A DNA stretch of 64,000 nucleotides, taken from assembly GCA_050302495.1 (NCBI GenBank), contig JBNLBP010000001.1, positions 127,269-191,268 on the forward strand. The letters are read 5' to 3'. The position numbers and the translations under genes were made by a program. Within the stretch, counting starts at the first letter, position 1, and every line of letters begins with the position of its first letter. Positions 6,411 through 57,010 of this stretch are shown piece after piece. Under the pieces are notes generated by a model that searched no databases, was not told the origin of the DNA, and was given only the letters and a program-made list of their open reading frames with translations. The DNA comes from Candidatus Pacearchaeota archaeon. Lineage in GTDB: Archaea; Nanobdellota; Nanobdellia; Pacearchaeales; GW2011-AR1.

Positions 6411-7242
6411 TTTGCATCAATCCATCTATAGGGGATTTTATTTTTTTTAATTGTTCCGTTGAAACGTGAGCGTAAATTTCTGTGGTCGCAAGGTTACTAT
6501 GGCCAAGAAGAGTTTGTATAAATCTTATGTCTGTTCCATTTTCTAATAAATGTGTTGCAAAAGAGTGTCTTAAGGTATGGCAGTGAACATCTTTGTTTAT
6601 TCCTGCTTTTTTTGCTGTATTTGAAACTATTTTTTGCATATTTCTAGGAGTAAGTTTTCCCTTTGGACCTGAGAAAATGTAAACTTGGTTGAATTCTTTT
6701 TGATTTTTAGCACGATTTTTTAGATCTTCATATAAGAATTCGGGAATATTAAACATACGATCTTTCTTTCCTTTAGCTTGTTTTACATAACCTATCTTAT
6801 TATCAAAATCTAGATCATCTATTTTAAGACTAACCAGTTCTGAAACCCGAAACCCACAAGCATACATAAGAGACATCATTAACCTTGATTTCTTATTTGA
6901 AGCGACATCAAACATCCTTTTGACTTCTTCTTTTGTTAAAACTGCAGGGATTCTTTTTTCTCGTTTTGGTCTTTTAATACCTTGAGTTATATCTTTTTTT
7001 AGAATATTTGAATAAGCATATTTAATTGCGGATAAGAAAACAATCGTTGAACTTGAACTTGAATCAGATAATCTCTCAACTAAGAAAAGTTTTAGATCGT
7101 CTTCACTCATATCATCTGGTATTTTATTTGTAAATATGAATAATTCATTGTTTGCTCTTAGATAGTTTCTTAAAGTATAATTGGAATTTTTAGAGATCTT
7201 CAGTTCTATTTCAAGTTTTTTTAGAAATTCTTCTGGAGTCAT
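6403..7242 (-). CDS. xerA: tyrosine recombinase, XerA/XerCD-like integrase family
   Basis: C-terminal catalytic signature HTLRHSFATHLLENGTDIRFIQTLLGHSNLATTEIYAHV. R (RVSEL) and K (GKKDR) are also present. Confidence 0.85.
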   Translation of the reverse strand: MTPEEFLKKLEIELKISKNSNYTLRNYLRANNELFIFTNKIPDDMSEDDLKLFLVERLSDSSSSSTIVFLSAIKYAYSNILKKDITQGIKRPKREKRIPAVLTKEEVKRMFDVASNKKSRLMMSLMYACGFRVSELVSLKIDDLDFDNKIGYVKQAKGKKDRMFNIPEFLYEDLKNRAKNQKEFNQVYIFSGPKGKLTPRNMQKIVSNTAKKAGINKDVHCHTLRHSFATHLLENGTDIRFIQTLLGHSNLATTEIYAHVSTEQLKKIKSPIDGLMQNE

Positions 7243-7909: not shown

Positions 7910-7996
7910 GATATGGTTATACGAACTATGTTTAAAAATTCTTCTAAGATATCTTTTTATAGTTAATTCGTGTGATTGTTTGAGGAGAGGTTAAGT

Positions 7997-9625: not shown

Positions 9626-10396
9626 TTATCCTTTGTTGTAAATAGTTCTGACTTTTTCTTCAAACTCTTTCTGAACTGCTTTTGGAACATAATCATTTGA
9701 TAATTTCAGAATCTCTAAAATATTCTGATCAACCAATATCCCCTCTTCTAAATTTTTCTTTGCGGCTCCGCCGCTAGATCCGACGAACCGATCGCTCCAG
9801 TCGCCAAGATCGCCCCTAGCGAGGGCAATAGACCTGCTCCCAAGCCTGCTGAGGTACAAGGCACGTCCCTTTTCAAAGTTACTTTTAGAATCAAAATAAA
9901 TCTCCATAGCTTTTTCTATCCCAAATCTTTTCTTCATTTCAGGGAAGAATTCATCTGCATAGTCAGAAAGTAATTTATTGCCTCTTGCTAGAAAATTCCA
10001 TATTTCAGAATCTTTCACACTTTCAACTGTGTAAGTTTTATTGTGAAGATTTTTCACTTCACCTTTGGACAAATATAATACTTTACTCTTGTCATTTAAG
10101 CTTTCAAAAGTTCCATTGTCTAAAACAACTGCTCCTTCATTTAATTTTGTTGAAGGGTTAATATTTCTGATGTAATCTGCATCCAAGACAATTTTAACAT
10201 CTCCTCTTGTATTGTAAACTGTTCCGTCAGAAGTGTCAAAAAAATTATCTTTCCAATCTGAGAATTCTCTTCCATAACTCAATCTATTTTGCATAACATC
10301 GGCTACAGATTGTATTTTGTATCCTTCTTCTTTCATAGTAGGTATGCTGTTTCTTGCATCTCCTGAAAATAATTTATAGTTTTTTCCTAAGTTCAT
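9626..10396 (-). CDS. hypothetical protein (256 aa) containing a local GC-rich segment
   Basis: Track ORF. No motif recognized. Carries a roughly 64% GC stretch at 9761-9870. Confidence 0.45.
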   Translation of the reverse strand: MNLGKNYKLFSGDARNSIPTMKEEGYKIQSVADVMQNRLSYGREFSDWKDNFFDTSDGTVYNTRGDVKIVLDADYIRNINPSTKLNEGAVVLDNGTFESLNDKSKVLYLSKGEVKNLHNKTYTVESVKDSEIWNFLARGNKLLSDYADEFFPEMKKRFGIEKAMEIYFDSKSNFEKGRALYLSRLGSRSIALARGDLGDWSDRFVGSSGGAAKKNLEEGILVDQNILEILKLSNDYVPKAVQKEFEEKVRTIYNKG

Positions 10397-10442
10397 TGTA
10401 AAGTTACATATAGAAGGGATTTATAAGTTTTCTGGAAACCAA

Positions 10443-10583
10443 TTATTTCTTCTTAAGTAATTCTTTTTGATTGATTAACATTAAAATTACTGAAACGATT
10501 ATTAAACTCCAATGAATTAGTAATCCTCCTACTAAAAAAAGCAATGCTATTAAGGATAAGATAAAAACTTTAGTATTTTTCAT
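10443..10583 (-). CDS. small hydrophobic protein (46 aa), unlisted short ORF
   Basis: ATG at 10583..10581. Translation MKNTKVFILSLIALLFLVGGLLIHWSLIIVSVILMLINQKELLKKK has two hydrophobic stretches. Confidence 0.25.
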   Translation of the reverse strand: MKNTKVFILSLIALLFLVGGLLIHWSLIIVSVILMLINQKELLKKK

Positions 10584-10633
10584 GGATATCCAAGTGCAAT
10601 AATTCTTAAAAATGTTTACAGTGTCTATAGTTT

Positions 10634-11227
10634 ATGGATAAAAAAGAGGGAATTCTTGAATTATTTTTAGGATTGATATTTGTTGCATTATTAGTTATTA
10701 TTTCTATTTTGGTTATTGGTATGGCTGATGGGAAACAAACAGCTGTTCAAACATCAAACAGCATCCAAAATTCTTACAATGTTAATTCCTACAACCAGGT
10801 TGTCCAAAAAATTCCTGTAGAGACAAGTGCGGCTAGGAATGTTCCGGTTACCAAAAGGTTTGTTGAAAGGCCTGATTATGGCACTCATATAGTAAGTTAT
10901 GTTCGAAAAGGTTATACGAACTCTGACAACTATCAGAAAAGCCAATACCTTAGATACACTAGTTACGGAGAGCATACACAAGAAAAAACCTTTTTTAATA
11001 ACTACAGGGACGAATTTAATGTTTATGTAGTTAATAAGGATTATGCCGGAGGGTATTTTAAGGTAAAATTCGCTTTTTGTGATTATTATGATAATTGTTT
11101 CTCTGAAACCATAGAAAAATATATTCCAGCAAAAGAGGAAGCGAAGTTCACATTCATGGATGTGCAGAACGAGCGATATAAGTACCACAATTGGGAATAT
11201 AAGGTGTTTCCAGATGTTTTGGACTAG
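10634..11227 (+). CDS. membrane-anchored hypothetical protein
   Basis: N-terminal TM helix (ILELFLGLIFVALLVIISILVIG), then a Y/N-rich ectodomain. Contains an AAACAGCTGTT palindrome. Confidence 0.45.
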   Translation: MDKKEGILELFLGLIFVALLVIISILVIGMADGKQTAVQTSNSIQNSYNVNSYNQVVQKIPVETSAARNVPVTKRFVERPDYGTHIVSYVRKGYTNSDNYQKSQYLRYTSYGEHTQEKTFFNNYRDEFNVYVVNKDYAGGYFKVKFAFCDYYDNCFSETIEKYIPAKEEAKFTFMDVQNERYKYHNWEYKVFPDVLD

Positions 11228-11311
11228 TTTTTAGGGCAATTTCCAAAAAGTACTGATAATGTACGTTGTGCGAAGCTTTTTGAGGGTTTTTAGGCATTTT
11301 TTGCGAAAAAA

Positions 11312-11971
11312 TCAATAATTTTCATATTTTGGGTCAAAAAATCCACTTCCTTTATGTTTTGAGAAGAGATCTTCCTTAGGTTCATCAAAAGAATTTGCAC
11401 TTAGGTTATGTTTGTTTTGTTTATTCAGTTTTGCAGTCTCATTTATATTGAATGCGAGATTTGCAAGCTCTGTTGGACTTGGAAAATAATAATTTGTATT
11501 TAAGGTATGTAAGAAATCACTCTCTCCAGAATCAACTTTTGAAGGGGATAGTTTTGTGCTCATATCAGTCGTATGGCCTGCGTCTTTTTTATCAACTTCA
11601 TAATCAATGCCCTTTATTGCACTTAGGTTATGTTTGTTTTTATCTCTTACAAATTTGGAGTCTTTGTGTGCGATAAGTAGATTTTGAAGATTTGTTTTAT
11701 TATTTTTATATTCATTAAATTGTTCTTCAGAAATTAAAGCATAATGATCAAACTCCTCAAGAGATATATCCCCATGCCTTTTTAGTAAAGGGAACCATGC
11801 TGATAGCTTTCCTCCCTCTATATAGTGTATGCCTAATGAATTTTCCTTAGGAATTTGGGCAATTAAGTGAGGCTGACGAATGTTTTGAAAATATTGGCCT
11901 TCTAGATTTTCAATTAATTTAGAATAAAGTGTGTGTTCATAAGGAACGACCTTGAACTCTTTATTTGGCAT
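11312..11971 (-). CDS. hypothetical protein with an internal 24-bp duplication
   Basis: Track ORF. Identical 24-mer TTGCACTTAGGTTATGTTTGTTTT at 11394 and 11617, encoding an NKHNLSA repeat. Confidence 0.4.
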   Translation of the reverse strand: MPNKEFKVVPYEHTLYSKLIENLEGQYFQNIRQPHLIAQIPKENSLGIHYIEGGKLSAWFPLLKRHGDISLEEFDHYALISEEQFNEYKNNKTNLQNLLIAHKDSKFVRDKNKHNLSAIKGIDYEVDKKDAGHTTDMSTKLSPSKVDSGESDFLHTLNTNYYFPSPTELANLAFNINETAKLNKQNKHNLSANSFDEPKEDLFSKHKGSGFFDPKYENY

Positions 11972-12052
11972 TGAAAACTAAATCAGAGGTAATATTTAAG
12001 GATTTGTTTGATAGAAGTATTATAATTACGAAAATTATACACTTAGGTTAGA

Positions 12053-12346
12053 TTAGTCTTTTGGAAGATTAAAGATTACAGCAAATCTTTCTAAGCTATC
12101 TTTTGAATTGGCTTGGGCCTCTAGAAGGCTTTGTTCTTCAGAGTCTATAAATTGGACATGAACCCCTTCAACAAGGTATTTATCAGGCGATACTGAATTT
12201 TCTAGTTGATTGTTGTAAAAGTCTTCTTTTATTGAATCGTATTTATCTTTGGGAATATTCAAAGAAGTGAATCCAAAAAAATCTATACGATCTTTCCAAA
12301 ATTCCTTGCCTTTTTCCCCCACCGTGTATCCTGTGCCAAAGATCAT
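12053..12346 (-). CDS. hypothetical protein (97 aa)
   Basis: Track ORF. No motif. Confidence 0.35.
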   Translation of the reverse strand: MIFGTGYTVGEKGKEFWKDRIDFFGFTSLNIPKDKYDSIKEDFYNNQLENSVSPDKYLVEGVHVQFIDSEEQSLLEAQANSKDSLERFAVIFNLPKD

Positions 12347-12539
12347 AGTGATTGTTAATTCTATCTCTATTTAAAGATTTAGGCTCTAGAATTTCTGAAT
12401 AATTAATAGAACTGCCAGGATGTTGCACTTAGGTTAAGTTAGTATTCTTACTAAAAAATATTGTGAAAATTTTGATTTTAAAAGAATAGTTTTTAATTAT
12501 TTAGTAAATTATTTTATAAAATGACCAAAGAAAATTAGA

Positions 12540-12790
12540 TAAACACCTGTTTAAACAGCGTTTTATCGACGGTGTAAGAACTTGGGTATTTAAGGGTGTT
12601 TGACAGGTTGTTGGAGGTGTTTGAACAGGTGTTGGATAATATTTTGTGTTTTGGGTGATTCTTAAACAGCTGTTTATAGGTGTTTGTAGCTGTTTAGAGA
12701 TGTTTAAACAGGGTGTTTGTTTGTTTTTTTCAAAATAAACGGGTGTTTAAGGGTGTTTATTATGTAAAATTTTATGTTAAAAATAGTGTA
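12540..12790. repeat. intergenic array of GGTGTTT / CAGGTGTT iterations interleaved with CTGTTTAAACAG and AAACAGCTGTTT palindromes
   Basis: At least six exact GGTGTTT copies. Palindromes at 12547-12558, 12662-12677 and 12701-12711. Confidence 0.7.
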
Positions 12791-12865
12791 AAAATTAGCA
12801 TAGAAAAAGGCTTTTTATCGATATAAGAAAGAAAAGTTTATAAACATGCTTTCTTTGTAATTACT

Positions 12866-13507
12866 ATGTTTGGATTATTTTCGAGAAAAAAAGAGATTGA
12901 TGAAGTTAAGGAAGATACAAAAAAAGGATTTGAATCTGTAAAAAAAGATATTACGGCTGTAAGCGGATGGATTAAACACCTAGATTCTGAGCGAGAAATG
13001 CAAAAAAAAGACATTTCTGAGGTTAAAGAAATTTTATCGTCGGTTCAAGAAGAGCTTGAAAGTCTCAAGAACGTGTTTTCTATGATGAATCAAACAGGTG
13101 TTTTGCCAAAAAACAAACAGGTGTTTAAAACACCTGGTAGGGTGTTTGAAGAACAAACAGGTGTTTATGCTGTTCAAACAGGTGTGCAAACGGCTGTCCA
13201 AACACCAAATTTAGAGCAATTTTCAATAACAGAGAGAGCAATTATATGGGTTATGCTAAATAGTGATATGAAGCTTAGTTATGATGATATAGCTGCTATG
13301 TTGGGAAAGGAGAGATCTACTATAAGAGGGCAGATAAATACAATAAAATCAAAGAGTGAGGGCTTAATTGAAGAGGTAATAGAGAAAAATGGTAAAAAAA
13401 GAGTGTTTATACCTGAGAAAATGAAGGAAATAATGCTCAAAAAGGCGAAAGTGAGAGTTAATAAACAAAAAAACGCGAAAAAAACTAAAAAAGTGAGTGA
13501 ATATTGA
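12866..13507 (+). CDS. coiled-coil / QTGV-repeat / C-terminal winged-HTH protein (paralog of 13702..14589)
   Basis: N-terminal K/E coiled coil. Middle region is made of AACAGGTGTTT nucleotide repeats (QTGV peptide repeats). C-terminal HTH-like LSYDDIAAMLGKERSTIRGQINTIK. Confidence 0.5.
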   Translation: MFGLFSRKKEIDEVKEDTKKGFESVKKDITAVSGWIKHLDSEREMQKKDISEVKEILSSVQEELESLKNVFSMMNQTGVLPKNKQVFKTPGRVFEEQTGVYAVQTGVQTAVQTPNLEQFSITERAIIWVMLNSDMKLSYDDIAAMLGKERSTIRGQINTIKSKSEGLIEEVIEKNGKKRVFIPEKMKEIMLKKAKVRVNKQKNAKKTKKVSEY

Positions 13508-13660
13508 AAGAAAATGAGGGTAAAAATGCTAAAAAATAAAGAAAAAGTGAGTGTTTTACAAGAGAATAGGGGCTCGAGTAAAAGCTTAGAAAAAGTGAGG
13601 ACTAATTTATCGACGGAAACAACGTAAAAGTGATAGATTTACAAGATAAAAGAAGTGATA
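13445..13660. repeat. AAAGTGAG iteron-like direct repeats (about six copies at 25-55 bp spacing)
   Basis: Copies near 13447, 13488, 13543, 13592, 13627 and 13653. They span the 3' end of the 12866 gene and the convergent intergenic spacer. Confidence 0.6.
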
Positions 13661-13701
13661 TGAATAGTCAAAGTAATTAATCGGTGTAACGAGAATCGTA
13701 A

Positions 13702-14589
13702 TTAAATATCTCTTAATTGAATTATTGTTTGTAGACTAGCAACTTTCTTTAAATCAGAAGAGACACTTAACTGGATAGACTTGTTATTTATCTTAGTTTT
13801 ATCGACGGGGATACCTTTCTTTATTAGTCTTCCAATATAATCCCTGATGGAGCTCTCTGTAAGCCCTAAAATGCTTGAAATAGCCTTATAATCAGCATAT
13901 CCTTCTTCTTCACATAATTGATATAATGTAGTGAATACTGTCATCTCTTGATCAGTGAGTCTTTTGAACTTTAGACGTATTTCTTTCTTCAAGTTATCAA
14001 GAGAGTTGAGAATTGTCATGGCATCCTTTATTGGGCTTGAAGGAGTCATTTTAGGTATGTTTTCTTGATTGTACGAACTATTATGTGTCTGTTGGTGTGT
14101 TTGTCTGTTTGTCTGTTTGTCTGTTGGAACCCCCCCATTTCCTGTGGAAATACCTAAATTTTGGGGTTCTAAGGGCTTAATATGTGTCGAATCTGTCGAA
14201 TTATGTGTCGAAATAGAGTCATTTATGTGTTGGATTGTCGAATTATGTGTCGAAGCCCTTTTAACAGGGATTTCAGGAGTGTTGGAATATGTGTTTGTCT
14301 GTTTGTCTGTTTGTCTGTTTGTCTGTTGGATAAGTATTTCAGGGTTATTTGGAGAAGAAAGAATACTTGAAAGGGAGTTTTTTTTGGATTGAAGTGTATT
14401 CTCTTTCAGTGATTTAACAATTTCTTTAATCTCATTTAAATCAGAAGAAGTATTATTTAAAGAATCTTTCAATGAGCATATCTCACCATACAAAAAGTCA
14501 ATATCTTCTTTAACTCTCAAAAAGGCCTCTTTTATTTCTTCCATTATTTCAAAAGAGGTATTAGATATAAAAAGATTAAGATAATCCAA
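13702..14589 (-). CDS. coiled-coil / tandem-repeat / C-terminal winged-HTH protein (paralog of 12866..13507)
   Basis: Same architecture as the 12866..13507 gene. C-terminal HTH-like YADYKAISSILGLTESSIRDYIGRLIKKG. Middle region encoded by (TTGTCTGT)n arrays and GAATTATGTGTCGAA repeats. Confidence 0.5.
   Translation of the reverse strand: MDYLNLFISNTSFEIMEEIKEAFLRVKEDIDFLYGEICSLKDSLNNTSSDLNEIKEIVKSLKENTLQSKKNSLSSILSSPNNPEILIQQTNRQTDKQTNTYSNTPEIPVKRASTHNSTIQHINDSISTHNSTDSTHIKPLEPQNLGISTGNGGVPTDKQTNRQTHQQTHNSSYNQENIPKMTPSSPIKDAMTILNSLDNLKKEIRLKFKRLTDQEMTVFTTLYQLCEEEGYADYKAISSILGLTESSIRDYIGRLIKKGIPVDKTKINNKSIQLSVSSDLKKVASLQTIIQLRDI
14085..14340. repeat. intragenic tandem arrays: (TTGTCTGT)4-5 at 14090-14135 and 14293-14335, and GAATTATGTGTCGAA x3 at 14181-14255
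   Basis: Read directly. On the coding (minus) strand these give KQTNRQT and STHNS peptide repeats. Confidence 0.75.
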
Positions 14590-14597
14590 GATAATGT

Positions 14598-14867
14598 TTA
14601 ATTTGCTAGCTTCCTATAAGAAGAATATGCTTTATCAGATAGTTTCCATCTTGATCGTTTCAAATAAGGTATACCTGAAGGATTTTTCTTTATTTCATTA
14701 ACAAGACCTTTCTTTTTTAGCCTAAGTAATAAAGTTTTGGTGAATTCTTCATCCCTCACAACTTCATGTGCAACATTAATTGTGAAAACTGCTTTAGGAG
14801 ATATAGAAAATAGATATGAAATGATTTGTTCACATATTCTCTCTTTTTTTTGTTCTGAAATACGCAT
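14598..14867 (-). CDS. small basic protein, possible winged-helix DNA-binding
   Basis: 89 aa, directly upstream of 13702..14589 on the same strand. K/R-rich C-terminus. Confidence 0.35.
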   Translation of the reverse strand: MRISEQKKERICEQIISYLFSISPKAVFTINVAHEVVRDEEFTKTLLLRLKKKGLVNEIKKNPSGIPYLKRSRWKLSDKAYSSYRKLAN

Positions 14868-14946
14868 AAGGAGGATAAGAAAATACTTTTTTTAAATATG
14901 ATGTATTATATAATAAATTAGAGTAGGAATAATTAGCAAATTTAAA

Positions 14947-15387
14947 TTATTTCTTTGGAGAAGAACCTTGTGCAGAATTCTTAGCTGGTTTCACCGAGGG
15001 TAAAGGCACATGAGAAGGTAAATTTATTTCTTCTTCCAATTGAAGAGCTTTAAGATTACATTTCTTTAAAATAACATTGAATAAAGGTAATCTGAATTCT
15101 TCAGGAACAGATTTTTTAGCCCATTCTTTTATAAATAATTCCGCTTCTTTAGCTGGCATTGATACTAAAACCATTCCTGAAAAGAATATCTTAGCAAACT
15201 TAGGTTCATATGAGATCTCATAACTAAAATCAACACCTAGAAGAGATTCTTTTGATTGAATAACATCAGACTTAACGTCTTTTACGTCTGCAATATCTAT
15301 ATTTGTATTAACCTTTAAGTTTTCAACAAGTGTTTTAGAATATTTCTCTGCACCAATTTTAGAAAAGTTAAAACCAACTAATTTCAT
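14947..15387 (-). CDS. hypothetical protein (146 aa)
   Basis: Track ORF. No motif. Confidence 0.4.
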   Translation of the reverse strand: MKLVGFNFSKIGAEKYSKTLVENLKVNTNIDIADVKDVKSDVIQSKESLLGVDFSYEISYEPKFAKIFFSGMVLVSMPAKEAELFIKEWAKKSVPEEFRLPLFNVILKKCNLKALQLEEEINLPSHVPLPSVKPAKNSAQGSSPKK

Positions 15388-15467
15388 AATACCAAGAGAA
15401 AGTTTTTGTTTTTAAATATTTTGGTAGTTGAAAAGGATTGTTAGTCTTTTTTATTAGAATAATCTAA

Positions 15468-15728
15468 TTATATTAAGTCTTCTTCAGAAACAATAACGAA
15501 GTCTCCTATAGCTACAATAGAGCTATAAGGTATTAACAGCTCGTTTGAAGATGTTTTCTCTAGGTTAAGATTTCTGGTATAGGGAGTTGTATCTTTTACA
15601 ACGATATTAATTAATTCCCCAGATCTTGTCTCAAAGAGAATATCCTTAACAAATCCTAATCTTTTTCCCTCTTTTGTTACAATCATTTTACCCACAAGAG
15701 CATTGAAAGGAGTCTTTTCTGTTTGCAT
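15468..15728 (-). CDS. PRC-barrel domain protein
   Basis: 86 aa. The GKMIVTKEGKRLGFVKDILFETRSGELINIVV pattern is typical of small archaeal PRC-barrel proteins. Confidence 0.6.
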   Translation of the reverse strand: MQTEKTPFNALVGKMIVTKEGKRLGFVKDILFETRSGELINIVVKDTTPYTRNLNLEKTSSNELLIPYSSIVAIGDFVIVSEEDLI

Positions 15729-15813
15729 GAGAAGGTGAGACCTAACAAATTTATAAAGTTTTCTGTGAGAATATATAGAGATTAGAGGAGATACTTAATA
15801 ATACTCTATATAA

Positions 15814-15985
15814 ATAATAATAATAATAATAATAAATTATTATATATAACACCCCCACCCCATTACTTCTTATGGAAATATTTAAAAAGAAATTGATTGA
15901 CTTTTTCTTTTTTATTTTATTTAAAAAAATTTATATTATATATTATATATATAATATAAATAATAATAATAATAATAATAATAAT
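15814..15985. repeat. (AAT)n microsatellites (about 7 and 8 units) within the origin AT-rich region
   Basis: aataataataataataat runs at 15814-15836 and 15957-15985. Confidence 0.8.
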
Positions 15986-16146
15986 TGTTCTATTTGGTGA
16001 TTATTTAGAAATTGTTCTCCATAGGAAATAAAGGTGTTTTTATTTCTTAGTGATTATAATCCTTTATATAATAAACTCCGTTTTCTCCGTTGGTTATGTT
16101 CCTTTGGAGGTATTTTCCACAGGAAATAAACGTGTGGGTGTGATAA
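15845..16146. promoter_or_regulatory. predicted chromosomal replication origin (oriC): AT-rich unwinding element flanked by ORB-like dyads, immediately upstream of orc1/cdc6
   Basis: ORB-like elements TCTCCATAGGAAATAAAGGTG (16015-16036) and TTTCCACAGGAAATAAACGTGTGGGTG (16124-16150). A third copy lies on the opposite strand at 15849-15880 (TTTCCATAAGAAG..GGGGTGGGGGTG) with a G-string. A >90% A+T stretch containing an (AAT)8 run sits between the inverted elements (15881-16010). An inverted core TTCCTTTGGA is at 16100. Confidence 0.6.
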
Positions 16147-16148
16147 AG

Positions 16149-17360
16149 ATGGCATTAGATATTGATGGTTTGTTTAACTCTTTTCATAAAGAGGGTATAT
16201 TCAAAGATAAAAGCTTACTACAAATAAACCATAAACCTGAAGAGATTCCTCATAGGGATGAACAGATAAAGCAAATTGTTTCTATTCTGGCTCCTGTACT
16301 TAGGGGTGAGAAACCTAGTAATCTTTTTGTTTATGGTAAAACTGGTACTGGTAAGACTCTTTCTGTTCAATTTGTTCAAGATGAATTAATAAGGAGATTC
16401 TCTAGAGAATCTGATTTTAAGCTTAGAATTGAATATTTAAATTGTAAACTTAAGAAGATTGCTGATACAGAATATAGAATCCTTGCGGAATTAATTAAGA
16501 AACTAGGTGGTGAGGTTCCTGAGACTGGCTTGCCTACTCAGTCTGTTTATGGTAAATTTGTAGATTTAGTAGATACTGAGAAACAATTGATTGTTTTAGT
16601 TTTAGATGAGATCGATCAAACTGTTAAGAAAATTTCTAGTGACTTTCTTTATAACCTTACTAGATTAAACTCCGAATTATCTAAAACTCAAATTTGTGTG
16701 GTGGGTATTAGTAACAATCTTACTTTTTTGGATGAATTAGACCCAAGAGTTAGAAGTTCACTGAGTGAAGAGGAGATAGTTTTTCCCCCATATAATGCTG
16801 TTCAGTTGCAAGAAATTTTGAATAAGCGTTCAAATGTTGCATTTAGGGAAGGTATTGTTGAAGAAGGTGTTATTGCTAAGTGTGCTGCTTTTGCTGCTAG
16901 AGAGCATGGTGATGCTAGAAGAGCATTAGATCTCTTAAGAGTTGCAGGGGAATTGGCTGAAAGAGCGGGTTCTGAAAAAGTTTTACTCGAACATATAGAT
17001 CAGGCCAATGATAAAATAGAAAAGGACAAGATTTTGGATATTGTTGAATCTGAACCTAGGCAATTTCAACTTGTATTATACTCCATTATAAATCTAATTG
17101 AGAAAGATAAAGATCATTCTATATTTACAGGAGATGTTTACAACTATTATCAGGATTTATGTTCTAAGAATCGATCAGAAGTTCTTACTCAAAGAAGAGT
17201 CTCAGATATAATACAAGAATTTGACATGTTAGGTATCATTAATGTAAGAGTTATTTCTAAGGGTAGAGGTGGGAGAATGAGGGAAATAAAGTTAGCTATT
17301 TCAAATAATATATTAAATAAGGTTAAAGAGATCATTGAACACTCTCTTAATTATAGATAA
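16149..17360 (+). CDS. orc1: Orc1/Cdc6 replication initiator
   Basis: AAA+ Walker A GKTGTGKT. Walker B VLVLDEID. C-terminal winged helix. N-terminal MALDIDGLFNSF...INHKPEEIPHRDEQ is typical of Cdc6. The ATG at 16149 is preferred over the track's alternative start at 16050, which would run through the ORB elements. Confidence 0.9.
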   Translation: MALDIDGLFNSFHKEGIFKDKSLLQINHKPEEIPHRDEQIKQIVSILAPVLRGEKPSNLFVYGKTGTGKTLSVQFVQDELIRRFSRESDFKLRIEYLNCKLKKIADTEYRILAELIKKLGGEVPETGLPTQSVYGKFVDLVDTEKQLIVLVLDEIDQTVKKISSDFLYNLTRLNSELSKTQICVVGISNNLTFLDELDPRVRSSLSEEEIVFPPYNAVQLQEILNKRSNVAFREGIVEEGVIAKCAAFAAREHGDARRALDLLRVAGELAERAGSEKVLLEHIDQANDKIEKDKILDIVESEPRQFQLVLYSIINLIEKDKDHSIFTGDVYNYYQDLCSKNRSEVLTQRRVSDIIQEFDMLGIINVRVISKGRGGRMREIKLAISNNILNKVKEIIEHSLNYR

Positions 17361-18940
17361 TGGGTGATGAAATTGTTAAATTTTGTTTTGAAAGGGGCTT
17401 ATTATTAGATAATGAAATACTTGATTTGTTTAGACAGGAGAATGATTTTGAATCGGTCAAATTAGTTATAGAGAAAATAAAGAGTAAAACTCAAGAGAAA
17501 ATAATTACTAGAGATGTTCTATCTGTTAATCAGGAGAAAATAAGACAGGTTTTTTTGGAACTTCCTTATGAAAAACAGAAAATACTTGAGAATTTGAAAA
17601 TAAAGTTGGGTTTGAGCATAGAAATATCTAGAGAGATTAAACAAGAGGTAAGCACTTCTTTTAATTTAGAAGAACCAAGTGTTAAAATTTTTGATTCTCC
17701 TAAGCTTGTTGAGAAGAAGTTAGAAGTTCAGGATTTTACTAAGTATTTTAGGTCTAGATTTGATCAAATGAAGGGGGTTCTTATGACCCATTCCGCTTTG
17801 AATAATCTTGTTTCAATAAATAAGATTTCAGGTAATAGGTCTAATTTTTCCTTGATTGGCATTGTTAGGGATAAAAGTGTTACTAAAAATAAAAATCTTA
17901 TGTTAGAGGTTGAAGATTTTACTGGAAAAATAAAGGTTCTTATTAATCAAAATAAGAAGGAAGTTTATGAAGAAGCACAAGATATTGCTCTTGATTCGGT
18001 GTTAGGGTTTAGTGGTTCAGGGAATAGTGAGATATTTTTTGCTAATGAGGTTATTTTTCCAGATTCTATGCTTCCAGAGAGAAAAAAGGCTTTTGTGGAG
18101 GAATTTGCTCTTTTTATTGGGGATTTACATTTTGGAAGTAAGAGGTTTTTGAGAAAAGGTTTTGAGAATTTTATAAATTATATTAATGGCGATGCTGGTA
18201 ATAGAGATGAAGTAATGAAGATAAAATATCTTTTTTTAGTGGGAGATGTTGTTACGGGTGTTGGAAATTATCCTAATCAAGAGCCTGATTTAGAAATAAA
18301 TGATCTTGAGGAACAGTTTACTCAATTGGCAGGCTTGTTGGGGAGGATAAGAAAAGATATTAAGATTATTATTTCTCCTGGAAATCATGATGGTGTTAGA
18401 ATTATGGAACCTCAACCCTTACTCAATGAAAAATATGCTTGGCCTCTCTTTGATATGGATAATGTGATTATGACTACAAACCCTTGCAATGTTAATATTG
18501 CTTCAAGGGAAGGATTTTCTGGTTGGGATATTTTGACTTATCATGGTTTTTCATTTCCTTATTATGCTGGAAATATACCTTCTTTAATAAAAAAGAAGGC
18601 TATGAATTCCCCTGAAGAAATTATGAAATTTTTACTCAAGAATAGACATCTTGCTCCAACCCATGGTTCTACCCAGTATTATCCTTTAGAAGAAGATTCT
18701 TTGTTTATAAAAAAGGTCCCAGATATATTGGTTTCTGGACATACTCATAAAGCAGGTATTGTTTACTATAATAATATCCTAATTATTTCAGTTGCTTGTT
18801 GGGAAGGGATGACTCCTTATCAGGAGAAGTTTGGTAATAAACCGGATCATTGTAAGGTTCCAATGGTTAATCTTAAGACAAGGTCTGTTAAAATTCTTGA
18901 TTTTGAGGATCTTGAAGAGACTGAAGAGAAAAGCGTTTAA
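17360..18940 (+). CDS. DNA polymerase D small subunit (DP1, 3'-5' exonuclease, calcineurin-like phosphoesterase)
   Basis: MPP motifs GDLHFGS, GNHD and GHTH with an N-terminal OB-like region. 1-nt overlap with the orc1 stop. Confidence 0.88.
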   Translation: MGDEIVKFCFERGLLLDNEILDLFRQENDFESVKLVIEKIKSKTQEKIITRDVLSVNQEKIRQVFLELPYEKQKILENLKIKLGLSIEISREIKQEVSTSFNLEEPSVKIFDSPKLVEKKLEVQDFTKYFRSRFDQMKGVLMTHSALNNLVSINKISGNRSNFSLIGIVRDKSVTKNKNLMLEVEDFTGKIKVLINQNKKEVYEEAQDIALDSVLGFSGSGNSEIFFANEVIFPDSMLPERKKAFVEEFALFIGDLHFGSKRFLRKGFENFINYINGDAGNRDEVMKIKYLFLVGDVVTGVGNYPNQEPDLEINDLEEQFTQLAGLLGRIRKDIKIIISPGNHDGVRIMEPQPLLNEKYAWPLFDMDNVIMTTNPCNVNIASREGFSGWDILTYHGFSFPYYAGNIPSLIKKKAMNSPEEIMKFLLKNRHLAPTHGSTQYYPLEEDSLFIKKVPDILVSGHTHKAGIVYYNNILIISVACWEGMTPYQEKFGNKPDHCKVPMVNLKTRSVKILDFEDLEETEEKSV

Positions 18941-18995: not shown

Positions 18996-19595
18996 ATGGT
19001 AGAAAAATTGAAAATAGGTATAGATATTGATGATGTTGTTGCAGAATTTTTTAAACCCTATTTGGAATTTCATAATTCTAAGTTCAATACCTCTCATGAT
19101 TTTGAAGATATTACAAATCCTTTTATTTGGGAACAACTGGGTTTTAGTGTAGAAGAGATGCAACCTCATTTTGAAGATTTTGAAAAGAATTCAACCCCTG
19201 TGAAAGATTTTCCTTTGGTTGAACATTCTAAGGAAGCAATAGATGAATTGGCAGAGACTTGTGACATTTTTATTATTAGTTCAAGACCCAATAAACTTTT
19301 TGATGAAACTGTTTTATTTTTTGAAAAGAATTTTCCTGGAAATAATTTTGAAATTATTTTTTCAGGAGAGATCCATGATGAGGATAAACGTAATTTATCG
19401 AAGCATGAGATATGTAATAATTTGGGTATAAATGTTATGGTTGAGGATAATCCTACTTATGCTTTTGAGTGTGCAAGAAATGGGATAAAGACTTTTTTGA
19501 TAGACCGGCCTTGGAATAGGGTTTTTGAGGAACATGATAACATAATAAAAGTTAATGGTTGGAAAGAGGTGTTGGATCACTTAAATGATAAATGA
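18996..19595 (+). CDS. 5'(3')-deoxyribonucleotidase-like HAD phosphatase
   Basis: N-terminal KIGIDIDDVVAEF (DxDxV motif), typical of the NT5C family. Confidence 0.6.
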   Translation: MVEKLKIGIDIDDVVAEFFKPYLEFHNSKFNTSHDFEDITNPFIWEQLGFSVEEMQPHFEDFEKNSTPVKDFPLVEHSKEAIDELAETCDIFIISSRPNKLFDETVLFFEKNFPGNNFEIIFSGEIHDEDKRNLSKHEICNNLGINVMVEDNPTYAFECARNGIKTFLIDRPWNRVFEEHDNIIKVNGWKEVLDHLNDK

Positions 19596-19917
19596 TAAAG
19601 GTGAATTAGTTATGGAATTGATGCATGAAGAGGAAAAGAAGGAAATTTTGAAGATAGGTCTTGTTTATAATGTTCAGGTTGGAGAAAGTAGTGTAAGGTC
19701 AGGTATTTTGACTAGTAAAAATAGAAATGATCTTTATAAAATTCTTGTAAATAGTTTACCTGCAGATAGGATGAATGATCCCCGGATTTATCCTTTTAGA
19801 GAATATTCTTTTGAAAATGATTTGTTGAAAATTCGTTGTTCTTCTGGACCTGAAATTATTTCAAAATATTCTAAGAAATATAGGGAGCTTAAACCGTTTT
19901 TAGAGAAATTAGAATGA
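19585..19917 (+). CDS. hypothetical protein (110 aa)
   Basis: Track ORF overlapping both neighbours by a few nt. No motif. Confidence 0.35.
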   Translation: MINDKGELVMELMHEEEKKEILKIGLVYNVQVGESSVRSGILTSKNRNDLYKILVNSLPADRMNDPRIYPFREYSFENDLLKIRCSSGPEIISKYSKKYRELKPFLEKLE

Positions 19918-22900
19918 AAACTGAAACATATTTTGAAAATTTGAAGAAAGAAGTTGATAAGGTTTATGTAGTAGCAAATGAAGCTAGAAGAAAGGGTTTT
20001 GACCCTGTTGATGAAGTCGAGATACCTTTGGCTATGAATATGGCTGAGAAGGTTGTAGGTATTATTTCTACAGTTTACCCTCAAATGTTGAATTCGGGAA
20101 TATCTAAAAGAATTGTTGAGCTTGAGAAACAATTTGGAAAACTTGATGCTACTGTCTCATTTAAAATTGCGGAAGAAGTTGCAAAACAGAAATTTTGTAA
20201 GTTTGAAAATACTCTTGAAGCAATGGATGCGGGTATACGTGTTGGTTTTGGTTATCAGACAATAGGTGTTGTATCTTCCCCAATTGAAGGATTTACTGGG
20301 TTGAAGGTTCGACATACTAAAGATGGGAAAGAGTATATTGAAGCAAGTTTTTCTGGACCTATTCGTTCGGCTGGAACGACGGCTTCTTGTATTGTTTTGA
20401 TGATTATTGATTTTTTGAGGGAGACTTTTGGTTATGCGAAGTATGATCCTACTGATGATGAAATTAAGAGGGTTTGGACCGAATTAGAGCATTTCCATGA
20501 CCGTATAACTAATTTGCAGGGAATGCCTACAGAAGCGGAAGCATTGTTTTTAGCTGAGAGAATGCCTATACAGGTTGCAGGTGATGCTTCTGAAAGAATT
20601 GAAGTTCCAAATTATAAAAATCTTGAAAGGGTTGATACCGATTTTTTGAGGAGTGGTTTTTGTTTGATTATGGCTGAAGGGTTATCTCAGAAAGCAAAGA
20701 AGGGTTTTAGATTGTATACTAATGCTAAGAAAAATGGAGTAAACATGACTGGTTTTGATTGGCTGGATGAATATCTCGTCTTACAGGAGAAGATTAGTAA
20801 AGGTAAGACCAAATCTGTTAATTCTGTTCCGCCTTATATTAGAGATTTGGTTGCAGGTAGACCTGTATTTGGCCATCCATCGCGAAGTGGAAGTTTTAGA
20901 TTTAGATATGGTAGAGGAAGAAATTCTGGGTTCTCTGCTGCTTCAGTACATCCTGCTACTATGGCAATATCTGATAATTTTATTGCTGTAGGGACTCAAT
21001 TGAAAATAGAGAAACCAACAAAGGGTTGCGCAATAAGTTCTTGTGACTCAATTGATGGCCCTATTATAAAATTATTTAATGGAAGTGTAAAGAAACTCCA
21101 TAATCAACAGGAAGCTAAGCAATATTATCCTGATACAGAAGAAATAATTTATTTTGGAGATATTCTCTTCCCTTTTAGTGATGTTTTGAATAGAAATTAT
21201 AATTTGCTTAAACCTGGTTATGTTGAAGAATGGTGGGAATTGGAGTTGAAAGAGAAAAATCCTTTAGAAGAATATCATGGTTTTAATCTAAAAATTGATG
21301 AAGCAATTAATTTGAGTAAAAAATATGGTGTTGCATTGAATCCTAAATTTATTTTTTATTGGACTCAGATTTCTAAAGAGCATTTTAGGGGGTTGATTGA
21401 TTGGCTGAAATATTCTAAGGTTGATGGAAAAATTATTTTGCCTTACGAAAAGAATAGCAATGAAAAATTTATTTTTGGAAAGAGGGCTTTGGAACTTTTA
21501 GGTATTGAGCATGATGTCACATTAGAACATGTTGTTTTATCTGAATTGAATTCAAAGGCTTTACTGGTGAACCTTGGTTTGAATCTTGATGTTCATTTAT
21601 CTAGAACTTTGAAAGAAGAAATAGATGGTTTGGAGAAAAAGATTAACTTTGATAGCGAAAATATTTTGGAAGAAATTAATAAAGTTTCAGAATTTTTAAT
21701 AAAAGATAAAGCTGGAGATTTTGTGGGTGCACGGATGGGTCGTCCAGAAAAAGCAAAATTGAGAAAACTGACCGGTAGTCCAAATATTCTTTTTCCGGTG
21801 GGTAATGAAGGAGGGAGATTAAGGAGTTTACAAGCCGCTTGTGAAATTGGTAAAGTTTTTAGTTCGTTTCCATTAAATTATTGTGAGAAATGTGCTAAAG
21901 AGACTATTTACCCTAAGTGTGAAACTTGTGGTGAAAAAATCAGGGAGCAATTTTATTTTCCACGTCTTAAGGAGAAGAGTTTTTCAAAAGAGATAGAAGG
22001 TTCGGATAGACCTGGTATGAGGTATTCAGGTAGATCTATTGATATTAATCACTATTATTCTAATGCTTTGGAGCTTTTAAAAATGGATAAGAATGAAGCA
22101 CCCGTTTTGATAAAAGGTATAAGGGGTATGAGTTCAGAAGGTAAGGAAACAGAACATTTGGTTAAGGGTATTTTAAGGGCCAAATATGGTTTGCAAGTAA
22201 ATAAGGATGGTACCATAAGGGTTGATGGGACTGAGTTGCCCGTTACGCATTTTAAACCAAAAGAAGTTTCAGTTAGTGTTGAGAAATTGAAAGAAATTGG
22301 ATATGATTTTGATATATATGGTAAACCTCTTGAGAATGAAAATCAAATCTTGGAAATAATGCCTCATGATGTTATTTTGCCTTGTAGTCCTGATTCTCTT
22401 GATGAGAAATGTGATGATGTTTTTTCTAAAGTTTCTAATTTTGTTGATGAGCTTTTGACTAAATTTTATGGTGTTGGTAATTTTTATAATGTGAAGAAAA
22501 GAGAAGATCTTGTGGGAAAATTGGGTGTTTTTATGGCACCTCACAATTGTGCAGGAGTTGTTTGTAGGTTTATTGGTTTTTCAAAAACCCAAGGGCTTTT
22601 GGCTAGCCCTTATATGCATGCTGCAGTTAGAAGAGATTGTGATGGAGATGAGGCTGCAGTTATGTTGTTGGGTGATGTTTTATTGAATTTCTCAAGAAAA
22701 TTCTTGCCAAGTCATAGGGGAGGTACTCAAGATGCTCCTTTGGTTTTGAATGCTAGGATTGATGCTGGAGAGGTTGATGATCAAATCTTGGATTTTGAAG
22801 CAACACCTGAAGGTCATTACCCTTTATCTTTGTATAAACTTGCAGAACAAGGAAATCATTCAAGTGAAGCTAAAGATGTTGTAATTGTTAAAACTGTTTT

Positions 22901-23396
22901 GAAAGAAGGAAGAGATCCTTTCCGTAATTTGGGTTTTACCCATGATACTTCTGATTTCAATGAAGCAGTTTTATGTTCTTCATATAAATTATTAGCAACT
23001 ATGCAGGATAAAGTTCAACACCAGATGGAATTGGTTGAGAAGCTAAGGAGTGTTGATACTTCTGATACTGCAAGATTGATTATTGAAAGACATTTCATTA
23101 GAGATTTAAGAGGTAATTTAAGAAAATTCTCTCAACAAGAGTTTAGATGCGTTGCTTGTAATGAAATAATAAGAAGGCCTCCTTTGAAAGGGGTTTGTAG
23201 TTCTTGTGGTGGAAAATTGATTTTTACAATTCACGAAGGGGGTATTAAGAAATATCTCGAACCTGCACTAGATTTAGCAAAAAAATATAATTTGTCAACT
23301 TATTTACAACAGAATTTGGAATTGGTTAAGGGCTATATTGATAGTATCTTTGGGAAAGAATTGGAAAAACAAGAGAATATTAGTAAATGGTTTTAG
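19914..23396 (+). CDS. DNA polymerase D large subunit (DP2)
   Basis: 1160 aa. Conserved DP2 blocks and C-terminal Zn-binding CxxC pairs (CVACN...CSSCGG). No intein-sized insertion. Confidence 0.9.
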   Translation: MKTETYFENLKKEVDKVYVVANEARRKGFDPVDEVEIPLAMNMAEKVVGIISTVYPQMLNSGISKRIVELEKQFGKLDATVSFKIAEEVAKQKFCKFENTLEAMDAGIRVGFGYQTIGVVSSPIEGFTGLKVRHTKDGKEYIEASFSGPIRSAGTTASCIVLMIIDFLRETFGYAKYDPTDDEIKRVWTELEHFHDRITNLQGMPTEAEALFLAERMPIQVAGDASERIEVPNYKNLERVDTDFLRSGFCLIMAEGLSQKAKKGFRLYTNAKKNGVNMTGFDWLDEYLVLQEKISKGKTKSVNSVPPYIRDLVAGRPVFGHPSRSGSFRFRYGRGRNSGFSAASVHPATMAISDNFIAVGTQLKIEKPTKGCAISSCDSIDGPIIKLFNGSVKKLHNQQEAKQYYPDTEEIIYFGDILFPFSDVLNRNYNLLKPGYVEEWWELELKEKNPLEEYHGFNLKIDEAINLSKKYGVALNPKFIFYWTQISKEHFRGLIDWLKYSKVDGKIILPYEKNSNEKFIFGKRALELLGIEHDVTLEHVVLSELNSKALLVNLGLNLDVHLSRTLKEEIDGLEKKINFDSENILEEINKVSEFLIKDKAGDFVGARMGRPEKAKLRKLTGSPNILFPVGNEGGRLRSLQAACEIGKVFSSFPLNYCEKCAKETIYPKCETCGEKIREQFYFPRLKEKSFSKEIEGSDRPGMRYSGRSIDINHYYSNALELLKMDKNEAPVLIKGIRGMSSEGKETEHLVKGILRAKYGLQVNKDGTIRVDGTELPVTHFKPKEVSVSVEKLKEIGYDFDIYGKPLENENQILEIMPHDVILPCSPDSLDEKCDDVFSKVSNFVDELLTKFYGVGNFYNVKKREDLVGKLGVFMAPHNCAGVVCRFIGFSKTQGLLASPYMHAAVRRDCDGDEAAVMLLGDVLLNFSRKFLPSHRGGTQDAPLVLNARIDAGEVDDQILDFEATPEGHYPLSLYKLAEQGNHSSEAKDVVIVKTVLKEGRDPFRNLGFTHDTSDFNEAVLCSSYKLLATMQDKVQHQMELVEKLRSVDTSDTARLIIERHFIRDLRGNLRKFSQQEFRCVACNEIIRRPPLKGVCSSCGGKLIFTIHEGGIKKYLEPALDLAKKYNLSTYLQQNLELVKGYIDSIFGKELEKQENISKWF

Positions 23397-56773: not shown

Positions 56774-57010
56774 ATGGGTCGGAAATTTTGTAAGACTCTT
56801 GTTAAGATTGTTGAGAAAAAGGGCAAAGTTCCCTGTCTTCATAGTGGTTGTAAGGGTTATATTCGTAAGGGAGAAGAAGATTTTGTTCCTTATTCGGGTG
56901 AGGGAGGAGAGTCCCACATTTATTACCAATGTACAAAGGTGAATAAACATAAATGGCTGGAGGTTAAGGATAGCTTTTATGAGAACAATCCTGTTTTCTT
57001 TGAACTTTAG
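56774..57010 (+). CDS. small Cys-containing hypothetical protein (possible zinc finger)
   Basis: 78 aa with C6, C21, C26 and C53. Weak evidence. Confidence 0.25.
   Translation: MGRKFCKTLVKIVEKKGKVPCLHSGCKGYIRKGEEDFVPYSGEGGESHIYYQCTKVNKHKWLEVKDSFYENNPVFFEL

Follow-up and report, generated by a model that had tools for sequence, protein, structure and literature searches.

The DNA analyzed here, referred to as the window, is a 64-kb portion of the replicon of an archaeon that is known from metagenome assemblies only and whose genome is 68% A+T. On the + strand the window carries an orc1/cdc6 initiator gene (16149..17360) encoding a 403-aa protein of the Orc1-1 type, with the Pfam domains Cdc6_C, Cdc6_lid, and AAA and a TIGR02928 match at 429 bits. 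The ATG at 16149 proposed in the initial annotation was supported by the homologues, most of which are also 403 aa long. The best PDB matches were 2qby_A (E 5e-107) and 2v1u_A (E 5e-90); these two ORB-bound crystal structures, 2QBY_A and 2V1U, are the closest to Orc1, and its wH region aligned with both throughout. No further orc1 gene was found in the 64-kb window. Downstream on the same strand are the genes for the small subunit (DP1, 17360-18940) and large subunit (DP2, 19914-23396) of DNA polymerase D. The orc1-DP1-DP2 synteny described earlier thus held for strand and order, but DP1 and DP2 are separated here by two small ORFs, one of them NT5C-like (18996-19595) and the other of 110 aa (19585-19917); in the close relatives L082 and L083 DP1 and DP2 are contiguous.

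The left flank contains a wHTH paralogue (12866-13507, +), a wHTH gene (13702-14544, −), ORFs of 89 aa (14598-14867, −) and 146 aa (14947-15387, −), and a PRC-barrel gene (15468-15728, −). Searches of the small flanking proteins against Pfam and NCBIfam gave only weak generic HTH or coiled-coil matches, and an Rfam scan of the region found no structured RNAs. When the leftmost complete protein of the window was looked up, the only contig recovered was a 9.5-kb Logan contig that ended at window position ~290. For comparison we used 80 related loci; the layout described below is shared by ~60 related Pacearchaeota-type loci, whose Orc1 proteins are 65–78% identical. Downstream of orc1, DP1 was present in 75 of the 80 loci and DP2 in 68, and the left-flank gene block (12866..15728) was syntenic in 43–60 of the 80, as well as in the close relatives.

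ORB elements were sought with a 21-nt consensus, TTCCANWGGAAAYNNNSGKGT, which has 17 specified positions, allowing at most two mismatches. Only four sites in the 64-kb window matched, at 14149(−), 15877(−), 16017(+), and 16115(+), designated A, D, B, and C, respectively. Each of the four contains a TTCCA-N-TGGAA-like dyad and a G-rich string at the consensus spacing. The published archaeal ORB consensus is CTTCCAGTGGAAACGAAAGGGGT / GTTCCAGTGGAAATGG-AGGGGTA (PMC4153887 Table 2), and the alignment to known ORBs called for in the initial annotation showed that the window elements agree with it, dyad-to-G-string spacing included. The exact core TCCANAGGAAAT was found three times in the window, at 16018(+), 16116(+), and 14137(−), compared with 0.13 copies expected, and none of 100 shuffled sequences yielded three copies; the copy at 14137(−) had not been noted before. 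Matches to the core with two mismatches were common (59 observed vs 44 expected in the window). Three ORB-like elements had been proposed originally. The minus-strand element at 15849-15880 is real, because the 21-nt consensus matches only four sites and ORB D is among them; the first plus-strand element is also real, but the second had been placed ~9 nt too far to the right. Across the 80 related loci, the 700 bp preceding orc1 had an ORB density of 3.6 per kb vs 0.07 per kb elsewhere, and no ORB was found downstream of the orc1 start.

ORBs D and B form an inverted pair. ORB D, the left arm (15857..15877, −; TTCCATAAGAAGTAATGGGGT, then GGGGGTG), is oriented with its dyad toward the intervening DNA and its G-string away from it, and its G-run extends to 15850. 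Of 60 related loci, 58 retain it, and its consensus there is cTTTTTAAAtatTTCCATAAGAAATCAAGGGGTGAGgG. The right arm, ORB B (16017..16037, +), has the sequence CTCCATAGGAAATAAAGGTGT; the consensus of its class is TTTCCATaaGAAAT..AGGTGTtTTTCTTTtT (58 loci). Between the two arms is a predicted duplex unwinding element, or DUE (15878..16016), of 139 bp that is TA-rich and 91.4% A+T. The 140-bp duplex between D and B is the least stable in the whole window (dG −133, compared with a mean of −169 and an SD of 7.4 for 140-bp duplexes of the window). An (ATA/AAT)n run was detected by TRF at 15951-15985 inside the DUE, in agreement with the earlier description of an (AAT)n-containing segment of >90% A+T between inverted ORBs; a second (AAT)n-type run (15813-15835) lies outside the pair. 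The order ORB(−)/DUE/ORB(+) is therefore present at the locus as D, the 139-bp tract, and B. In related loci the tract between D and B ranges from 108 to 464 bp, and its median A+T content is 90% vs 69% overall (31 loci). Words of the TATAATAT type were enriched in 46–49 of 56 DUEs vs at most 37 in shuffled sequences; among these 56 loci only TA-rich words recurred, and no specific GC-containing or other non-ORB motif was conserved in the DUE. A conserved TTTWTAAA immediately precedes ORB D and may possibly be the TATA box of the leftward PRC operon, but D lies at a long and variable distance from the PRC ATG (median 147 bp).

To the right of ORB B, a conserved block (16038..16071, +) ends in a TATA box, TTTATATAA (16063-16071). 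In an alignment of 61 loci, GGTGTTTTTCTTTTTTAGTAGTTATAATCnTTTATATAATAAA was conserved at 70–99% per column. From the usual distance between TATA box and start site in archaea, we infer that the block is the orc1 promoter and that transcription starts near 16092. ORB C (16115..16135, +; TTCCACAGGAAATAAACGTGT) lies 98 bp from B and 14 nt before the orc1 ATG, and its G-rich tail, GGGTGTGA, extends to 16143. The consensus of its class is TTTCCAtAgGAAAT.aAcGTGTG. In 58 of 61 loci B and C are 96–100 bp apart. The TATA box sits between them at a fixed distance. Across loci, the distance from ORB C to the ATG varies between −27 and −127. An ORB abuts the orc1 start here, as had been proposed, but does so only in some genomes. 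The placement of this ORB over the orc1 promoter was not borne out: because the conserved TATA box lies upstream of C, between B and C, ORB C is downstream of the predicted start, in the orc1 leader. Autoregulation of orc1 through ORB C remains plausible.

The most canonical ORB of the window is the distal ORB A (14129..14149, −; TTCCACAGGAAATGGGGGGGT), which lies 1.7 kb left of the origin core, in frame within the wHTH gene at 13702-14544(−), where it encodes ISTGNGGV. An equivalent was found on the minus strand 1.5–3 kb upstream of orc1 in ~45 loci, giving the family consensus TTTCCACWGGAAATGAAGGGGT. The encoded peptide maps to a linker with predicted disorder, and the gene belongs to a family of >2,000 proteins in which the disordered linker carries the ORB-encoded sequence I-S-T-G-N-x-G-V-P-T-D-R-Q-T. 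ORB A is the most conserved DNA of its gene, and across 45 genomes the synonymous codons within it stay frozen, against normal codon usage. This freezing indicates that selection acts on the DNA itself, and ORB A is most likely an auxiliary or regulatory Orc1-binding site. Two (ACAGACAA)n arrays on the minus strand (14086-14125 and 14292-14327) flank ORB A and TTCGACACATA repeats, all of them (14086..14327) within the linker-coding part of the wHTH gene, and (ACAG)n follows ORB A directly in nearly all loci. The wHTH paralogue has AAACAG[GC]TGTTT palindromes upstream as well as in the DNA that codes for its linker. Repeats at 12.5–13.2 kb share the G-string half of ORB B (AGGTGTTT), and a binding site common to ORB B and these repeats was considered but not adopted; the repeat unit is the palindrome-like AAACAG[GC]TGTTT.

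The arrangement resembles that of oriC1 of Sulfolobus/Saccharolobus (Orc1-1, ORB1-3), whose ORB3-DUE-ORB2 core likewise has inverted ORBs, each with a dyad and a G-string, around an AT-rich DUE; the DUE is ~130 bp there and 139 bp lies between the ORBs here. Both also have a third ORB and an adjoining initiator gene, and 2QBY_A is the closest solved initiator. The differences are that the Sulfolobus ucm motif, ATTATACAAAC, is absent from the DUE here; that the right-hand ORBs have GGTGT or CGTGT in place of GGGGT; and that a fourth ORB is found 1.7 kb away inside a gene. An origin of the WhiP type, as in Sulfolobus oriC3, was also considered. Neither its TACTACTACTAC repeats nor ucm was present or enriched in or near 15.7–16.2 kb, and the adjoining initiator gene is orc1 rather than whiP, so this type was rejected.

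In Pyrococcus and other Thermococcales, as here, the origin lies upstream of cdc6/orc1, which is followed by the PolD genes; the same-strand orc1-DP1-DP2 order of that group is found in the window with two ORFs between DP1 and DP2. Pyrococcus has a further ORB cluster inside dp1, which flanks the initiator gene; Cdc6 binds this cluster both in vivo and in vitro, and the cluster is conserved throughout the order (PMC1904270). It provides a precedent for ORB A. Here the in-gene element lies across the origin from dp1, within a wHTH gene, and consists of one canonical ORB, with (ACAG)n after it, rather than a cluster. A search of DP1 (17360-18940) for ORBs matching at least 14 of the 17 positions found none. 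Pyrococcus ORBs also have a longer dyad-to-G-string spacer than those described here (PMC1904270). The ORB A family consensus is nearly identical to the ‘Ca. M. intestinalis’ sequence TTCCAGTGGAAATGA-AGGGGT (Pelve et al., tabulated in PMC4153887). In ‘Ca. M. alvus’ ORBs ~1.9 kb apart lie on both sides of orc1 (PMC4153887); the Methanomassiliicoccales elements are described as upstream or downstream of genes, and none is reported in frame within a conserved gene (PMC4153887).

In the classification of Ori-Finder 2, Ori-Finder-Arch, and DoriC, the locus has the features of Type I (an initiator-adjacent intergenic region with ORBs) and of Type III (at least three ORBs with ORB(−)/DUE/ORB(+)). The Ori-Finder-Arch preprint annotated oriCs across 9,877 genomes, Nanobdellota included. 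Because pipelines of this type scan intergenic regions only, an ORB embedded in coding sequence, like ORB A, would go unreported. No described origin for Pacearchaeota-type DPANN archaea was found in the searchable literature.

Strand composition changes at the same place. The best change point for AT3 skew was 16176, between the PRC gene and orc1, where the RSS fell from 564 to 190; that for GC3 skew was at 15.4–17.5 kb. To the right of the site the + strand has an excess of G and T, of the leading-strand type, whatever the orientation of the genes. In the 16 kb to the left, AT3 was ~0 and GC3 ~+0.17, with no mirror image, and the raw cumulative GC skew climbed through the site without a minimum. 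The skew analysis proposed in the initial annotation gave a sharp knee here, without a reversal of sign within the window, whose left flank is 16 kb. Third-position skews in the 80 related loci, examined over 6 kb to the left and right, were small and inconsistent from locus to locus. L082 and L083, with 10-kb flanks that are syntenic to the left and to the right, do not have the strong skew of the right flank and thus are unable to show a reversal. A chimeric assembly joined at the AT-rich tract was considered as the cause of the knee and rejected, as divergence from L082 and L083 is equal for the orthologues left and right of the tract.

Taken together, consensus ORBs, an inverted ORB(−)/DUE/ORB(+) core, an adjoining gene for an Orc1-1-type initiator with wH and AAA+/ISM domains, and conservation of the element arrangement in ~60 related loci argue that the locus is very probably the chromosomal replication origin of a Pacearchaeota-type DPANN archaeon, of the oriC1 type and dependent on Orc1-1 and ORBs, as the initial annotation had predicted. 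The binding of Orc1, the loading of MCM, and the point of initiation are predicted as follows. Orc1 would bind ORB D (−) and ORB B (+) as polar monomers, with the dyads facing the 139-bp unwinding element; ATP-bound Orc1 on the inverted pair would recruit MCM to the DNA between them; and the DNA would melt in the TA-rich tract, after which bidirectional replication would follow. Orc1 on ORB C in the orc1 leader may damp or time its own transcription, and ORB A, in the wHTH gene, would serve as an auxiliary or regulatory Orc1 site.

ORB C follows a conserved TATA box at a fixed distance, a position that would also be expected if the ORBs were operators only, through which Orc1 regulates its own gene and the divergent PRC-barrel operon, while replication starts elsewhere or by another route, such as recombination-dependent initiation. 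TTTWTAAA before ORB D could then act as the leftward operon's TATA box, and the site shows no sign reversal of the skew. Origin-independent replication has been reported in Thermococcus, and the predicted origin and Cdc6 of Thermococcus kodakarensis are reported to be dispensable (PMC5663688); replication therefore does not have to start mainly at a canonical oriC. We nevertheless regard a purely regulatory role as improbable. It leaves unexplained the conserved inverted ORB pair around a tract of 108–464 bp that is ~90% A+T and the least stable of the window, as well as the compositional change point exactly at the site. The same architecture is an origin in characterized archaea, and the two roles are compatible.

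There is likewise only a slight chance that the locus is a real origin but a secondary or dormant one, with the main one outside the 64-kb window. The absence of mirror-image skew from the left flank would fit such an arrangement, and other archaea are known to have multiple or dormant origins next to orc genes (PMC4010727; dormant oriC, Ori-Finder-Arch text). Against it, the strong strand asymmetry starts exactly at the site, Orc1 is of the conserved Orc1-1 type in a conserved orc1-PolD neighborhood, and the window has no other orc1 gene and no ORB site outside this locus. Moreover, no tiny DPANN genome is known to have several origins. A chance resemblance in an unremarkable AT-rich stretch between genes that carries promoter elements, conceivable in a 68% A+T genome where loose core matches are frequent, is extremely improbable and was refuted by the core statistics, with exact and near-exact matches far above expectation, by the confinement of these matches to four sites at the locus, by the conservation of position, orientation, and spacing in ~60 genomes, and by the conservation of ORB D.

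As an origin of the standard ORB(−)/DUE/ORB(+), oriC1-type layout, the locus is ordinary in kind; its less ordinary feature is the extra predicted initiator-binding site preserved inside a neighboring protein-coding gene. ORB A offers a natural case of dual constraint, with a reading frame and a predicted initiator-binding site on the same DNA. We suggest tentatively, at somewhat less than even likelihood, that the linker-coding sequences also act as arrays of protein-binding sites in an extended origin-control region of ~3.7 kb that reaches into the wHTH genes; if so, the linker arrays may serve for titration of the initiator, for looping, or for coupling wHTH expression to Orc1 occupancy. 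Contigs from 21 of the 80 related loci stop within ~700 bp upstream of orc1, and the putative origin can account for this repeated assembly break. For uncultivated Pacearchaeota-type DPANN archaea the analysis offers a well-supported comparative definition of oriC, and the putative origin can anchor genome coordinates and permit growth rates to be estimated from origin-to-terminus ratios of read depth in metagenomes.

Exact copies of the core TCCANAGGAAAT of the origin recognition box (ORB), an initiator-binding element composed of a dyad and a G-string, occurred three times in the 64-kb window against 0.13 expected. Allowing two mismatches gave 59 matches against 44 expected; because this enrichment was slight, sites were called with a 21-nt consensus extended to cover the G-string, TTCCANWGGAAAYNNNSGKGT, at no more than two mismatches. 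It gave four matches in the window and no others: ORB A (14129–14149, minus strand), ORB D (15857–15877, minus), ORB B (16017–16037, plus), and ORB C (16115–16135, plus). The last three are the elements named in the initial annotation, which had correctly recognized them and started C about 9 nt too far to the right. As was to be checked, the elements fit the published archaeal consensus, in which a spacer of 4–5 nt separates the dyad from GGGGT (PMC4153887 Table 2).

The predicted arrangement of inverted dyads around an A+T-rich segment was confirmed. ORBs D and B are inverted, and their dyads face a 139-bp tract (15878–16016) that is 91.4% A+T, contains the expected (AAT)n element as an (AAT/ATA)n run at 15951–15985, and has, at about 4.9 SD below the mean, the lowest stability of any 140-bp duplex in the window. 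With this tract as the duplex unwinding element (DUE), the order D(−)/DUE/B(+) is exactly the ORB(−)/DUE/ORB(+) pattern named as the minimal functional archaeal origin (Ori-Finder-Arch preprint). Sulfolobus oriC1 has ORB3-DUE-ORB2 inside 130 bp, and both of its ORBs are essential (PMC12141716). Among solved structures, the adjacent Orc1 is closest to S. solfataricus Orc1-1 (2QBY_A, E 5e-107) and to A. pernix ORC1 (2V1U, E 5e-90), with alignments that extend through the winged-helix region; ORC1 of the 2V1U type binds the ORB as a polar monomer (PMC12141716).

For comparison we fetched 80 related loci whose Orc1 proteins are 65–78% identical. In these loci the 700 bp preceding orc1 contained 3.6 ORBs per kb, vs. 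0.07 per kb elsewhere; no match was found downstream of the orc1 start in the 80 loci, and nearly all of the matches elsewhere represent a single conserved minus-strand site 1.5–3 kb upstream of orc1. The B–C spacing was 96–100 bp in 58 of 61 loci, and ORB D was on the minus strand in 58 of the 60 loci having enough upstream sequence. The D–B interval varied from 108 to 464 bp, with a median A+T of 90% (69% overall). Each class had its own distinct consensus: TTTCCActGGAAATgAAGGGGTTCCaACAGAC for A, AAAtaTTTCCAtAaGAAAT.AAGGGGTgaG for D, TTTCCATaaGAAAT..AGGTGTtTTTCTTT for B, and TTTCCAtAgGAAAT.aAcGTGTG for C. Along about 10 kb the loci, and close relatives too, keep one gene order (wHTH paralogue, wHTH gene, two small ORFs, PRC-barrel gene, origin, orc1, DP1, DP2). 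Immediately next to ORB D, on its DUE side, a TTTWTAAA motif (15880–15889, minus strand) was conserved in most loci at 80–90% per column; it could serve the PRC-barrel operon, which runs leftward, as a TATA box, or belong to an extended boundary between ORB and DUE. Assemblies of these MAGs also break repeatedly at the AT-rich DUE region: 21 of the 80 contigs (L001, L007–L009, L013, L015, L021, L025, L030, L035, L036, L040–L043, L045, L047, L056, L059, L061, and L064) stop in or close to this low-complexity DNA, no more than about 700 bp upstream of orc1.

The window is archaeal sequence of about 32% G+C, and ribosomal-protein genes, tRNAs, TyrRS/TrpRS, and SRP54 show that the context is chromosomal. 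ORFs encode Orc1/Cdc6 (16149–17360) and the PolD subunits DP1 (17360–18940) and DP2 (19914–23396), all on the plus strand. The ATG proposed for orc1 at 16149 is supported by the length of its homologues, most of which have 403 aa. The proposed orc1-DP1-DP2 synteny held for order and strand and not for contiguity, since an NT5C-like 5′-nucleotidase gene and a 110-aa ORF without a family match (18996–19917) separate DP1 from DP2, which are adjacent in close relatives. The NT5C gene occupies this gap in 22 of the 80 loci; no homologue of the 110-aa ORF was found in the fetched loci. Orc1 homologues with 77–91% identity came from metagenome assemblies labelled Pacearchaeota, Nanoarchaeota, or Woesearchaeota. 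The most conserved left neighbor of the origin is the gene for an 86-aa PRC-barrel protein (15468–15728, minus; median identity 78%, 60 of 80 loci), and PRC-barrel proteins are connected with archaeal cell division. Between the ribosomal-protein genes and the origin region lie a XerA-like tyrosine recombinase, with Phage_integrase and SAM-like N-terminal domains, and a small ORF with a 'Recombinase' domain (5856–7242, minus); this pair is conserved in the close relatives L082 and L083 and could be Xer/dif machinery or a mobile-element remnant. About 4.5 kb at 7976–12400 (a CstA-like transporter and several small ORFs), 4–8 kb left of the origin, is missing from these otherwise syntenic relatives and is a lineage-specific insertion or a deletion in them. 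A 445-aa DHH/DHH-CID/DHHA1 protein (57007–58344, minus), encoded 41 kb away from the origin, resembles GAN, the RecJ/Cdc45-like replication factor of archaea.

Raw cumulative GC skew, proposed as a check on the origin, climbed through the site and had no minimum there. Skew at third codon positions (AT3 and GC3) separates strand effects from gene orientation. To the right, for at least 48 kb, third positions on the plus strand were rich in T and G whichever way the gene pointed (AT3 −0.345, GC3 +0.31); to the left, AT3 was about 0.01 and GC3 about 0.17. The best AT3 change point, 16176 (RSS 564 to 190), lies between the PRC gene and orc1. When genes were compared with their orthologues in L083, a sister genome, AT3 was shifted by −0.213 ± 0.031 and GC3 by +0.252 ± 0.046 in the right flank, and the left flank showed no significant shift. 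A chimeric join would also give a knee, but is unlikely because orthologues on the left and right are equally diverged. The composition thus changes precisely where the origin is predicted; on the right its polarity is that of a leading strand, and the mirror image expected on the left is absent. This one-sided knee gives partial support for an origin; replication in one direction or in both would not account for it. In L082 and L083 the skew is missing from both flanks.

The ORB next to orc1 had been proposed to overlap the orc1 promoter. A 61-locus alignment of the B–C stretch revealed a very strongly conserved block ending in TTTATATAA (16063–16071), followed about 25 nt beyond by a conserved TCGTTGA. 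By the usual archaeal promoter geometry, these would be the orc1 BRE/TATA and start site, with transcription starting near 16092. ORB C would then lie not in the promoter but past the start, at about +20 to +40 in the predicted leader. The gap between C and the ATG varies among genomes (−27 to −127), while C keeps a constant spacing to B and the TATA box. From such a leader position, bound Orc1 could act as a transcription roadblock, and autoregulation of orc1 through ORB C is plausible.

The most canonical of the four ORBs, A, is found 1.7 kb to the left of D, in frame within a gene (13702–14544, minus) whose product begins with a coiled coil and ends with a wHTH domain, the two being joined by a variable linker. 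The site was located in relatives at the protein level by the motif S.GN.G..[TA][DN], present in 45 of 46 syntenic wHTH genes. The codons at this motif are frozen: Ser TCC (45/45), Gly GGA (45/45), Gly GGG (44/45), Val GTT (40/40), Asp GAC (41/41), and Gln CAG (42/44). Usual usage differs; among the orc1 codons of these loci, TCC makes up 5% of those for Ser, GGG 23% of those for Gly, and GAC 19% of those for Asp. Amino-acid variation in the peptide falls exactly at degenerate positions of the ORB consensus. ORB A and the adjoining (ACAG)n are the most conserved DNA of the gene (identity 0.90–0.94), above the wHTH domain, within a hypervariable linker (0.05–0.3); AlphaFold places the peptide in this linker at pLDDT <50 and without secondary structure. 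The protein family had 2,079 matches; the peptide is present in 116 of the best 120. The unusual frozen codons, the high DNA conservation, and the disordered, variable linker together indicate that the peptide is not the only target of selection at ORB A, which acts on the sequence of the DNA, or RNA, as well. A precedent for a coding-embedded ORB is the Cdc6-bound cluster within dp1 of Pyrococcus/Thermococcales (PMC1904270); the 21-nt consensus found no cluster in DP1 of this genome.

Repeats accompany both wHTH genes. In the linker of the wHTH gene, two (ACAGACAA)n arrays in direct orientation (14086–14125 and 14292–14327), translated as TDKQTNRQT..., enclose ORB A together with a series of TTCGACACATA repeats. 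Almost all relatives have (ACAG)n after ORB A, with frozen codons GAC/AGA/CAG/ACA, and in locus L002 two convergent ORBs share a single (ACAG)n tract. A palindrome-like AAACAG[GC]TGTTT array (12540–13190) lies in the intergenic DNA upstream of the paralogue (12866–13507, plus) and again in its linker-coding part; AACAGSTGTT with at most one mismatch had 24 strand matches in the window, mostly there, vs. 6.9 expected. Most related loci have these repeats too, both inside the homologous gene and upstream of it; they are probably operators at which a dimeric DNA-binding protein acts, perhaps the wHTH protein encoded there. The 11-mer TTTATCGACGG (5 matches in the whole window vs. 0.3 expected) has four plus-strand copies in 1.3 kb, at 12562, 13033, 13606, and 13798, one of them inside the wHTH-coding region, and occurs on the plus strand at analogous positions in 11 related loci.

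We found no described origin for this lineage in the searchable literature; Nanobdellota origins are reported to have been annotated automatically on a large scale (Ori-Finder-Arch preprint). We conclude that the site is very probably a functional replication origin. It is a standard oriC1-type origin, and some novelty lies only in the coding-embedded ORB A and the repeat arrays of the two wHTH genes.
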